Positions 36,710 through 42,460 of a stretch of 47,580 nucleotides of DNA are shown one piece after another. A model generated the notes under the pieces. It ran no database searches. It was not told where the DNA came from and saw only the letters and a program-made list of their open reading frames with translations. The position numbers were made by a program, and so were the translations under genes. Source of the stretch: Candidatus Nanopelagicaceae bacterium (lineage in GTDB: Bacteria > Chloroflexota > Dormibacteria > Aeolococcales > Bog-877); contig DATKSV010000003.1 in NCBI GenBank assembly GCA_035531535.1, forward strand, positions 1-47,580, given 5' to 3'. Position 1 is the first letter of the stretch; each line of letters begins with the position of its first letter.

Positions 36710-38025
36710 AAGAGCTGCTACTTCGCAAGGTCCGGATCGTCGACCCCGTCGGGGGCAAGGACCGCGACAGCTACGACTTGCTGATCCGAGACGGGATCGT
36801 GGCCGAAATGGCGAGCAAGCTGGTCCTGCCCGCCGGCGGGGTGGTGCTGGAACGGCCCGGCAGCGTGGTCAGCCCCGCCTTCCTCGACCTCCACTGCCAC
36901 CTCCGTGAGCCCGGGCAGCCATGGAAGGAGCGCATCGCCAACGCCACCGCGGCGGCCGCGGCGGGCGGCTTCGGGGCGATCTGCGCCATGGCGAATCTGC
37001 AGCCGCCGCTGGACACTGAGCCGCGGCTGCGCCAGGCGCGCAGCAAGAACCGCTCCTGGGGCCGGATTCCCATCTTGCAGTTCGCAGCCTGCAGCACCGG
37101 CCTGCGCGGCCAGGAGCTGGTCGACATGGAGGGCCTGGTCGCCGCCGGCGCCGCTGGCTTCTCCGACGACGGCCGCCATGGCTGCGACCAGCGGATTCTG
37201 GCGGAGGGGCTGGCCCGCGCCCACTCCCTGGGCCGCCTCGTTGCCATTCACCCCGAGGACGAGCGCATCGTCGCCATGGCCAACGAATGGTCGGGGAGCG
37301 ACCCCACCGCCTGGAGCCTGCGTCCGGCGGAGGCGGAGGAGGCGGCGGTGACATCCGCGATCGCGGCGCTGCGGGATGCCGAGGTGGGCCGGCTCCACCT
37401 GCAGCACCTGACCACCGCCACCTCCGTGACCCTGGTTCGCCAGGCGAAGTCGGAAGGGCTGGCGCTGACGGCGGAGGTTACCCCCCATCACCTCATGCTC
37501 AGCGGCTTCCTGCGGGACCCCGACGTCCCCGGGCTCAATCTGACCTGCAACCCGCCGCTGCGCACGGAGGCGGATCGAGCCGCCCTCTGGGAGGGTCTGT
37601 TGGACGGCACCATCGACGCCATCGCCAGCGACCACGCTCCCCATGAGGTGCCCACCGATCCCCTGCAGAGGCGCCCGCCGGGGTTCAGCGGGGTCCAGGC
37701 CGTGCTCTCCGTGGTGCTCGGCCACCAGGATTCCGGCTCGCATCTGACCCGGATCGTGGCAGCTCTCAGCGCCGGCCCCCTCAGGGTCCTGGGGGCGGCC
37801 GCGGAAGGGCTCCCCAGCACCGGGATCCAGGTCGGCGAGCCGGCCCACCTCACCTGGTTCGATCCGGCCGGCAGATGGACCCCTGACCGGAGCTCATGGC
37901 TGTCGCTGGGAACCAACACCCCCTTCTGGCACCAGCAGCTGCGGGGCACCGTGCTGGCCACCTTCTCGCGCGGCCGGGCGGTGTACATAAGCCGCGGGCT
38001 GGGCGCGGAGATCGAACTTGACTGA
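36706..38025 (+). CDS. pyrC: Dihydroorotase.
   Basis: A GTG start overlaps the pyrR stop. Metal-ligand motifs are present (DLHCHLREPG, ASDHAPH). Confidence 0.9.
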   Translation: MKELLLRKVRIVDPVGGKDRDSYDLLIRDGIVAEMASKLVLPAGGVVLERPGSVVSPAFLDLHCHLREPGQPWKERIANATAAAAAGGFGAICAMANLQPPLDTEPRLRQARSKNRSWGRIPILQFAACSTGLRGQELVDMEGLVAAGAAGFSDDGRHGCDQRILAEGLARAHSLGRLVAIHPEDERIVAMANEWSGSDPTAWSLRPAEAEEAAVTSAIAALRDAEVGRLHLQHLTTATSVTLVRQAKSEGLALTAEVTPHHLMLSGFLRDPDVPGLNLTCNPPLRTEADRAALWEGLLDGTIDAIASDHAPHEVPTDPLQRRPPGFSGVQAVLSVVLGHQDSGSHLTRIVAALSAGPLRVLGAAAEGLPSTGIQVGEPAHLTWFDPAGRWTPDRSSWLSLGTNTPFWHQQLRGTVLATFSRGRAVYISRGLGAEIELD

Positions 38026-41000: not shown

Positions 41001-42460
41001 GCCGCCTCTACTTCGAACCACTCGACCTGGAGGCGGTGCTCGAGGTCTGCTCAGTTGAGAGGCCGCTGGGGGTCGTGGTCCAGTTCGGCGGCCAGACCGC
41101 GATCAACCTGGCGCCCCGCCTGGAACGGCTCGGGGTGCCCCTGCTGGGGTCGCCCAGCCGGGCGATAGAGATGGCCGAGGATCGCGGTCAGTTCGAGGCA
41201 CTGCTCGGCCGGCTGGGGATCGCGCGGCCGCCGGGCGCGGTGACCCGGGACCCGGACGAGGCGGTGGCGATCGCACGCCGAGTGGGGTACCCGGTGCTGG
41301 TACGCCCCTCCTACGTGCTCGGGGGGCGGGCGATGGACGTCACCCACTCCGAGGAGGAGTTGCGCCACTACCTGGGGGAGGCGCTGCGAGCCTCCGGCGA
41401 CGCCGGGGGCGAGGTCCTGATTGACAAGTACATCCTGGGGCTAGAGGTCGAGGTAGACGCGGTCAGCGACGGAACCGAGGTGCTCGTCCCCGGGGTCATG
41501 GAGCACATCGAGCGTGCCGGGGTGCACTCGGGTGACTCGATGGCGGTCTTCCCGCCCCAGCGGCTCAGGCCGGAGGCGATCGCGGAGCTGGTCGAGACCA
41601 CCACCAGGCTCGCTCTGGAGACCGGCACGGTTGGGCTGATCAACGTCCAGTACGTGGTCCATCGGGGGCGGGTGCTGGTGATCGAGGTCAATCCCCGCTC
41701 CAGCCGGACGGTGCCGTTCCTCAGCAAGGTGACCGGAGTGGCGATGGTGGATGCCGCCGTCCGCGCGATGCTGGGACAGTCCCTCCGGGGGCAGGGGCTG
41801 CGCCCCGGGCTGGCACCCCCGCCACCGCTGATAGCGGTCAAGGCCCCGGTGTTCTCCAGCCGCAAGCTGAACTCGGTGGACACGGTCCTGGGGCCGGAGA
41901 TGACCTCCACTGGCGAGGTGATCGGCGTCGACGCCACGCTCACGGCCGCACTCGAGAAGGCGTTCCTGGCGGCCTTGGGATCTTTGCCCAGCCAGGGGGG
42001 CGCCCTGGTCAGCATCGCCGACCAGGACAAGCCGGAGGGCCTCCCGGTGGTGGCGAGGCTGGCGGAGCTGGGCTTCACCATCTACGCCACCGCGGGCACC
42101 GCGGCCGCCCTGCGCCAGGCTGGAGTCAGCGTGGTGGAGGTCAACAAGCTGCACTCCGGACGCCCCGACGTGGTCGATGTGACGGTCGGCGGGCAGGTGC
42201 AGCTGGTGATCAACACCATCTCCCGGGTGGCGACGGACGAGATGCTGGGCGAGGAGTCCCACGGCGACTCCCGGCGCCCGGTCCGGGACGGATACCGGAT
42301 CCGTCAGGCGGCGGTGCAGCGGGGCATCCCCTGCCTCACCTCCCTCGACACCGCGGCGGCGCTGGTGCAGGCGCTGGAGAGCAGCCAGGGAGGGAGCCTG
42401 ACCCGGATCGCCACCATCGACGAGCACCGCCGAGGCACTCCGCAGGTGGCCCCAGCGTGA
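38018..42460 (+). CDS. carAB: Carbamoyl-phosphate synthase, small (glutaminase) and large subunits fused in one 1480-aa frame.
   Basis: A TTG start overlaps the pyrC stop. Residues 1-390 or so form the CarA GATase domain, with a Cys in AICLGHQL. The linker [17 protein letters not shown] runs straight into the CarB N-terminus [26 protein letters not shown] with no stop. Two ATP-grasp halves and a C-terminal MGS-like domain follow. Confidence 0.85.
   Translation: [1480 protein letters not shown]

Follow-up and report, generated by a model that had tools for sequence, protein, structure and literature searches.

Bacterial carbamoyl-phosphate synthase (CPSase) is normally built from two subunits, a glutaminase (CarA) and a synthetase (CarB), each with its own gene. 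On contig DATKSV010000003.1 of GenBank assembly GCA_035531535.1, a stretch of 47,580 bp with 69.6% G+C that we analyzed as a whole and refer to as the window, both subunits are instead read from one open reading frame (ORF) of 1480 aa. The locus thus raises the question of whether this long frame is a real gene for a single-chain enzyme or a product of sequence assembly. The original prediction, made from the letters of the sequence, had noticed the frame and had named two explanations, a natural fusion resembling the eukaryotic arrangement and an assembly indel that removed the carA stop codon. It was right to assume that in bacteria CarA and CarB are separate as a rule, though fused forms exist in other bacterial lineages.

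In the present analysis, comparison with related loci confirms that the carAB fusion is genuine and shared lineage-wide in the Dormibacterota. It very probably represents a natural, fixed fusion that arose once in the Dormibacterota ancestor from an ordinary carA-carB pair, and it would encode a single-chain, glutamine-hydrolysing CPSase (EC 6.3.5.5). The Dormibacterota are a widespread, largely uncultured soil lineage. We found no paper in the literature on a carA-carB fusion in this group, although fused bacterial CPSases are mentioned in a 2018 review. A review of CAD (PMC8442968) notes that in most prokaryotes the enzymes are encoded separately and that no structure is known for the CPS-2 of CAD itself.

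Two complete modules in one frame

The ORF listing of the window contains a single forward-strand ORF at 38018-42460, exactly as predicted (Table 1), and no stop codon separates its two modules, so that the usual bacterial state of two genes and two subunits does not apply here. Both modules are complete on either side of the junction, with nothing missing by the NCBIfam models: the CarA model TIGR01368 matches aa 13-382 over model positions 2-359 of 361 (423.8 bits against a cutoff of 307.35), and the CarB model TIGR01369 matches aa 398-1461 over model positions 3-1052 of 1052 (1398.6 bits against a cutoff of 1027). In Pfam terms, the CarA part consists of the CPSase small-chain domain (PF00988, aa 14-140) and a class I glutamine amidotransferase domain (PF00117, aa 203-380), and the Cys-His-Glu glutaminase triad is intact at Cys275, His361 and Glu363. 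The CarB part consists of two halves, each with a pre-ATP-grasp and an ATP-grasp domain (CPSase_L_D1/CPSase_L_D2 pairs; PF25596 and PF02786, twice each), together with the oligomerisation domain PF02787 (aa 809-888) and the MGS-like allosteric domain PF02142 (aa 1342-1441, nt 42041-42340), after which the protein ends. With both models above cutoff and the triad aligned, both modules of a CPSase II are present.

Two start codons only are available in this frame, TTG at 38018 and GTG at 38060. The TTG overlaps the pyrC stop codon (38023-38025) by 8 nt. We favour it as the probable start because the alignment to Escherichia coli CarA already begins at aa 12, and starting from the GTG would cut off aligned residues.

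At the junction, the CarA-side peptide ends at aa 386 (CRDEP) and the CarB-side peptide KVLVLGSGP starts at aa 403. Both peptides had been quoted in the original prediction and are present in the translation. The linker between them had been described as an 18-residue stretch of Pro, Arg and Ala; the composition holds (five Arg, three Pro and three Ala), whereas the length is 16 residues. A scan of the linker found no stop and no ATG. The sole in-frame alternative start is a GTG at Val388 (nt 39179-39181), with no Shine-Dalgarno-like motif upstream of it, in line with the earlier statement that CarB has no Met and no ribosome-binding site of its own.

The fusion in related genomes

With the fused protein as query, we scanned the GTDB representatives, one genome for each species, and examined the 80 best-scoring of 547 relatives, ranked by their match to the fused query. 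The matches span query residues ~11-1475 at 57-79% identity, and each of the 80 loci has its best CarA match and its best CarB match within a single stop-free frame. The loci come from independent short-read and long-read assemblies, with many of the short-read ones stemming from separate studies, and include Mb-scale contigs and a closed 2.49-Mb chromosome (OY969577.1). By record title, 52 belong to Candidatus Dormibacterota, Dormibacteria or Dormibacteraeota, 10 to Chloroflexi or Chloroflexota (which we take to be an older label for the same group), 8 are named simply "bacterium" and 10 carry other labels. The comparison with related taxa that the original prediction had suggested thus comes out in favour of a lineage-wide fusion.

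The junction itself varies widely among these relatives. Measured between the CarA anchor Q[FY]HPE and the CarB anchor GSGPxxIGQ, the spacing ranges from 47 to 108 aa in about two dozen distinct values, all in frame, and in some subclades it exceeds the shortest by up to ~60 residues. The flanks are conserved, and the linker sequences are essentially unalignable. We read this divergence as the signature of an old fusion that selection has held in frame through many independent indels. Two complete, conserved proteins in one frame in 80/80 loci, joined by linkers of about two dozen lengths, are therefore not a chance arrangement.

A single candidate for a separate carB came up and was rejected. 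This protein (P0075, annotated at NCBI as "large subunit, partial") starts within a Dormibacterota-type linker, but its locus (L085, DMCH01000168.1) has a run of 278 N at 3626-3904 in carA, which explains the split; the frame is the same on both sides, through "QYHPEG...KVLILGSGP", and the gene is fused. Because of the N run, public annotation lists two products for the fused gene, a 321-aa "small subunit" and, from an internal linker Met onward, a "large subunit, partial".

In a separate observation, ten loci (L005, L010, L016, L023, L032, L033, L043, L058, L064 and L073) have a Dormibacterota-type fused carAB (57-77% identity) and the same synteny under discordant titles: Micrarchaeaceae archaeon, Micrarchaeia archaeon, Verrucomicrobiia, Acidiferrales, Binatia, Limnocylindrales, Proteobacteria, Sulfotelmatobacter and Baltobacterales. 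The taxonomic names on these public metagenome-assembled genome (MAG) records are probably mistaken.

Predicted structure of the junction

An AlphaFold2 model was built for aa 1-950, which cover the CarA part, the first synthetase half and the oligomerisation domain, from an alignment of 121 sequences. The mean predicted local distance difference test (pLDDT) is 89.2 and the predicted template modelling (pTM) score 0.91. Residues 383-402 are modelled as coil between a helix (373-382) and a strand (403-407) by DSSP, with pLDDT values of 82 and 66 in two blocks. The best matches in the Protein Data Bank (PDB) are single chains of human CPS1 (5DOU), with a query-normalised template modelling (TM) score of 0.89 and a root-mean-square deviation of ~3.0 Å over ~965 columns, followed by the E. 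coli large subunit and small subunit, separately. Structure-based identity is ~49% to the E. coli large subunit versus 38% to human CPS1.

By this model, and given its pTM and its fit to the 5DOU chain, the protein is predicted to be a single chain with the glutaminase first and the synthetase second, packed against each other as in the heterodimer. The short linker is predicted to span the assembly without strain, compatible with canonical glutaminase-synthetase packing. Linker length against the CarA-CarB interface had been named as a point to check, and on the model it poses no obstacle.

Independent origin of the fusion

To place the fusion among other CPSases, the junction region (aa 271-529) was searched against 1.84 billion cluster representatives. 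Proteins spanning the junction are of three kinds: those of the Dormibacterota, many long eukaryote-like proteins of the CAD type (1800-2240 aa; some confirmed as eukprot entries), and several prokaryote-like proteins of 1360-1480 aa. The CarB part of the window protein is 54% identical to an unfused CarB (P0224), 49% to the fused P0122 and 39% to the fused P0126; overall, its identity to the other fused prokaryotic forms runs from 39 to 49%, and the eukaryote-like fused proteins reach 33-46%, with most at 36-43%.

We computed a neighbour-joining tree from 96 CarB parts, taking one representative for each 50% cluster and Kimura distances over 1018 columns, with 200 bootstraps. In this tree, the Dormibacterota form a clade in 200/200 replicates and join the unfused P0224 in 194/200. 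The eukaryote-like proteins form a clade in 200/200, and the fused P0142 pairs with the unfused P0200 in 200/200. In no replicate did the Dormibacterota join P0122, P0126, the fused prokaryotes as a whole or the eukaryote-like clade (0/200 each). The tree therefore indicates that CarA and CarB were fused separately in the Dormibacterota, the Bacteriovoracia, the P0122 lineage and eukaryotes, and probably in others. A eukaryotic origin of the Dormibacterota fusion was considered and rejected in view of the tree (0/200) and the identities.

Two observations from these searches stand apart. A fused CPSase of 1445 aa (P0178; loci L083 and L084, 8001-12338) falls inside the eukaryote-like clade. 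Its contigs are densely packed, up to 331 kb in the cluster, and the neighbouring genes have almost no Pfam hits but faint ankyrin repeats; candidate hosts are a protist, a giant virus and a symbiont. In addition, all proteins matched by a 400-aa junction query were below 700 aa in length, including those on Mb-scale contigs (for example P0053, 598 aa, on a 2.7-Mb contig), whereas full-length queries returned proteins of 1470-1520 aa. This may be a property of the word index or a result of frameshifted long-read assemblies, and has no biological meaning. The full-length fused relatives used here come from the genome loci and the representative search.

Proposed enzyme

By homology, the N-terminal CarA part would hydrolyse glutamine through its Cys-His-Glu triad. 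The ammonia would pass through an intramolecular tunnel to the first ATP-grasp half, where bicarbonate is expected to be phosphorylated to carboxyphosphate and carbamate to be formed; the carbamate would then move to the second ATP-grasp half to be phosphorylated to carbamoyl phosphate. The C-terminal MGS-like domain would provide allosteric control. Effectors of CPSase II enzymes are uridine monophosphate, ornithine and inosine monophosphate. The flexible linker of ~20 residues is predicted merely to connect the end of CarA with the beginning of CarB, and the packing of the two is expected to be that of the E. coli heterodimer and of human CPS1. Likely consequences of the fusion would be an obligatory 1:1 stoichiometry and a permanently assembled glutaminase-synthetase interface. 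The gene would be translated from its TTG, coupled to pyrC, within the pyr operon.

Alternative explanations

A sequencing or assembly indel could have removed the carA stop codon or shifted the frame between two genes that are really separate. The fusion is, after all, read from an assembly, and high G+C readily gives long stop-free frames: these are common at the G+C content of the window, in which spurious long ORFs are numerous. Such an error would have to recur, however, in each of the 80 related loci from independent short-read and long-read assemblies while producing about two dozen linker lengths, all of them in frame, and leaving the CarA and CarB models complete at both sides of the junction; the lone relative that appeared to be split is accounted for by its N run. 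This part of the original prediction has effectively been refuted, and we regard an indel as excluded for practical purposes. Horizontal gain of an already fused CPSase, from a eukaryote or from another fused bacterial lineage such as the Bacteriovoracia, is suggested by the presence of fused forms in eukaryotes as well as two or more other named bacterial groups and by the good alignment of the whole chain to human CPS1. We nevertheless consider it highly improbable. The nearest relative of the CarB part is an unfused bacterial CarB (P0224, at 54% identity and as sister in 194/200 replicates), no bootstrap replicate among 200 groups it with eukaryote-like or other fused lineages, the catalytic Cys is kept, unlike in CPS I, and the surrounding operon, with its translational coupling, is a pyr operon of the typical bacterial kind.

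A further explanation accepts the fused ORF but has two polypeptides come from it, by internal initiation of CarB in the linker or by post-translational cleavage, so that a CarA/CarB heterodimer does the work. The linker is a low-confidence coil, which would be accessible to proteases; the window has the in-frame GTG at Val388, and 75 of 81 sequences have some in-frame ATG, GTG or TTG in the linker region. Internal in-frame initiation is known in other bacterial systems, for instance for type I-D CRISPR large and small subunits. Yet the position of the start is not conserved, a Shine-Dalgarno-like motif precedes such a codon in only 15/81 sequences and in the window not at all, and GTG is simply a common Val codon at the window's G+C. 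Without a stop codon, moreover, free CarA cannot come from translation, so that the full-length chain is at least made, and in the predicted fold the linker spans the canonical assembly without strain. We consider two polypeptides unlikely.

Several points weigh against a single-chain enzyme fixed throughout the Dormibacterota. What we say of enzyme activity, of a single chain in vivo and of regulation follows from homology, and the fusion in the window is known from an assembled contig. Unfused exceptions within the lineage could have been ranked out of the best 80 of 547 relatives, and the survey covers matches to the fused query. Taxonomy was taken from record titles, and 28/80 loci are titled other than Dormibacter- (Chloroflexi, "bacterium" and some implausible SMAG labels). 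Finally, the tree is a distance (neighbour-joining) tree of anonymous cluster representatives, not a maximum-likelihood tree.

The pyr operon and other features of the window

The fused gene lies within a tightly packed operon, pyrB-pyrR-pyrC-carAB-pyrK-pyrD, and would therefore serve at least pyrimidine synthesis. At its downstream end, the GTG start of pyrK overlaps the carAB stop by 4 nt. Together with the overlap of the carAB TTG with pyrC and the GGAG motif in front of it, this points to translational coupling through the whole operon. The locations of these features are given in Table 1.

Table 1. Coordinates of the fused carAB gene, its parts and the neighbouring pyr genes in the window
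Feature	Position	Strand	Description and evidence
Fused carAB	38018..42460	+	1480 aa, from a TTG to a TGA; both modules score above the curated model cutoffs
GGAG, Shine-Dalgarno-like motif	38007..38010	+	7 nt upstream of the TTG, within the pyrC 3' end
CarA-equivalent glutaminase part, aa 12-383	38051..39166	+	Pfam; alignment to E. coli CarA residues 5-375
Cys275 codon	38840..38842	+	Equivalent by alignment to the catalytic nucleophile Cys269 of E. coli CarA
His361-Pro-Glu363	39098..39106	+	Equivalent by alignment to His353/Glu355 of the E. coli CarA triad
Interdomain linker, aa 383-402	39164..39223	+	Predicted coil of lowered confidence; hypervariable among relatives; without a stop or a conserved internal start
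CarB-equivalent synthetase part, aa 398-1461	39209..42400	+	Pfam, NCBIfam; alignment to E. coli CarB residues 7-1019
pyrB (aspartate carbamoyltransferase)	35082..36116 (stop-to-stop frame)	+	TIGR00670, 318.7 bits (cutoff 237); separate gene upstream
pyrR (pyr operon regulator / uracil phosphoribosyltransferase)	36038..36706 (stop-to-stop frame)	+	NF003549, 170 bits (cutoff 138); match from ~aa 38
pyrC (dihydroorotase)	36706..38025	+	TIGR00857, 292.7 bits (cutoff 279); separate gene, end overlaps the carAB start
pyrK (dihydroorotate dehydrogenase electron-transfer subunit)	42457..43350	+	Best matches are pyrK families, below equivalog cutoffs
pyrD (dihydroorotate dehydrogenase, class 1B catalytic subunit)	43359..44288	+	NF005574, 349.6 bits (cutoff 269)

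The same gene order is found in 34 of the related loci, and 28 have this order minus a detectable pyrC. In the latter (e.g., L040, L044 and L046-L052), the interval from pyrR to carAB has no pyrC match at E <= 1e-15, and in L085 pyrR is followed directly by the called carA part. One Dormibacterota subclade ('QYHPEGCPGPQDNQHLYDRF', with short linkers) seems to keep pyrC elsewhere. In the window, pyrR sits between pyrB and pyrC (34991-36706), and its role could be that of an attenuator or only that of a uracil phosphoribosyltransferase. No PyrR-binding element or any other Rfam family was found at gathering thresholds across the window, the pyr operon included, and no tRNA genes were found in the window.

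Elsewhere, on the reverse strand at 29424-31478, one stop-free frame of 685 codons has a luciferase-like monooxygenase (aa 40-334) followed by a UbiA prenyltransferase (aa 408-642). The window may contain another fused gene here, unless two neighbours share a frame by chance.

Significance

In practical terms, the long ORF is biology, and annotation pipelines should neither split nor flag carAB. In public annotation the fused proteins go by "large subunit" or "small subunit, partial", names that hide the fusion. The trait offers a clean marker for the Dormibacterota and a well-sampled case of convergent fusion of two interacting subunits, in a setting where fused bacterial and eukaryotic forms are known already. 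Among the relatives, linkers of many natural lengths are also available for asking what tethering does to the coupling of glutaminase and synthetase and to the ammonia tunnel. Our understanding of the CPSase mechanism is unchanged, and the fusion, while real, is only mildly surprising.

A broader proposal would make the fusion a phylum- or class-wide synapomorphy and one of at least 3-4 independent bacterial origins of a single-chain, glutamine-dependent CPSase convergent with the eukaryotic architecture, with the expanded linkers of some subclades having become regulatory or interaction segments. Taken as a whole this is doubtful. The synapomorphy and the multiple origins are well supported by the comparisons above, and the function of the linkers is pure speculation, by analogy with the regulated linkers of CAD.

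Comparison with known systems

A close relative is the CarA/CarB heterodimer of E. coli (PDB 1JDB, 1BXR, 1A9X), whose domains and domain order are all those of the window protein. Its CarA matches aa 12-383 with residues 5-375, and its CarB matches aa 401-1403 with residues 7-1019; the triad Cys269/His353/Glu355 is conserved, and identity to the large subunit is ~49% by structural alignment. The E. coli enzyme is glutamine-dependent, and the window protein is predicted to be likewise. E. coli carA and the window gene even share a TTG start. The difference is that E. coli has two genes and two polypeptides where the window has one. Between the aligned cores, E. coli has ~13 terminal residues (CarA 376-382 and CarB 1-6) versus 17 here (aa 384-400), so that the linker hardly exceeds the native tails put end to end.

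Human mitochondrial CPS1 (5DOU/5DOT) is, like the window protein, a single chain with the glutaminase-like part first and the synthetase second, and its residues 35-1470 align to the whole window protein in one stretch (E = 1e-302). It nevertheless stems from a separate fusion event and is only 38% identical. CPS1 works with free ammonia, has no catalytic Cys and depends on N-acetylglutamate. The loss of the Cys that marks this CPS I type is absent from the window protein, which retains Cys275, and glutamine use is therefore predicted, as in CPS II and III and unlike in ammonia-dependent CPS I. CAD and URA2 (GLN-SYN-DHO-ATC) likewise have a glutaminase and a synthetase fused, in a glutamine-dependent enzyme dedicated to the pyrimidine pathway (PMC8442968 for CAD). 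They have ~2200 aa, however, and include dihydroorotase (DHOase) and aspartate carbamoyltransferase (ATCase), whereas the window protein has 1480 aa with pyrC and pyrB separate in the same operon, and they form a phylogenetic clade separate from the Dormibacterota. The likeness to eukaryotic CPS and CAD in the original prediction thus holds for architecture and for the predicted fold (TM 0.89 against human CPS1), but not for descent, nor for the ATCase and DHOase, which are still separate genes.

Among bacteria, a close counterpart in form is the protein of Halobacteriovorax marinus SJ (CBW26754.1, UniProt E1X2I7), recorded under the name "carbamoyl phosphate synthase large subunit" and in fact a single-chain CarA-CarB of near-equal length (1470 aa) and the same domain order. 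This cultured, fully sequenced organism is part of the P0126 group (Bacteriovoracaceae/Halobacteriovoraceae). The fused gene of the Bacteriovoracia adjoins pyr genes as well, in the order pyrB-carAB-pyrF in L082 (P0126), on an 825-kb contig with a dense, operon-like neighbourhood. Its CarB part is only ~39% and its CarA part 33% identical to that of the window protein, 0/200 replicates group the two, and it represents a separate event in another phylum. The P0122/P0282 proteins (MBM4291527.1), from a MAG lineage labeled "Deltaproteobacteria bacterium", are likewise single-chain CarA-CarB of 1473-1524 aa with a variable linker, and P0122 lies in a dense, operon-like neighbourhood on a 398-kb contig. 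Their CarB part is 62-65% identical to unfused alphaproteobacterial CarB versus 49% to the window protein, and by the bootstrapped tree their fusion is again separate from that of the Dormibacterota.

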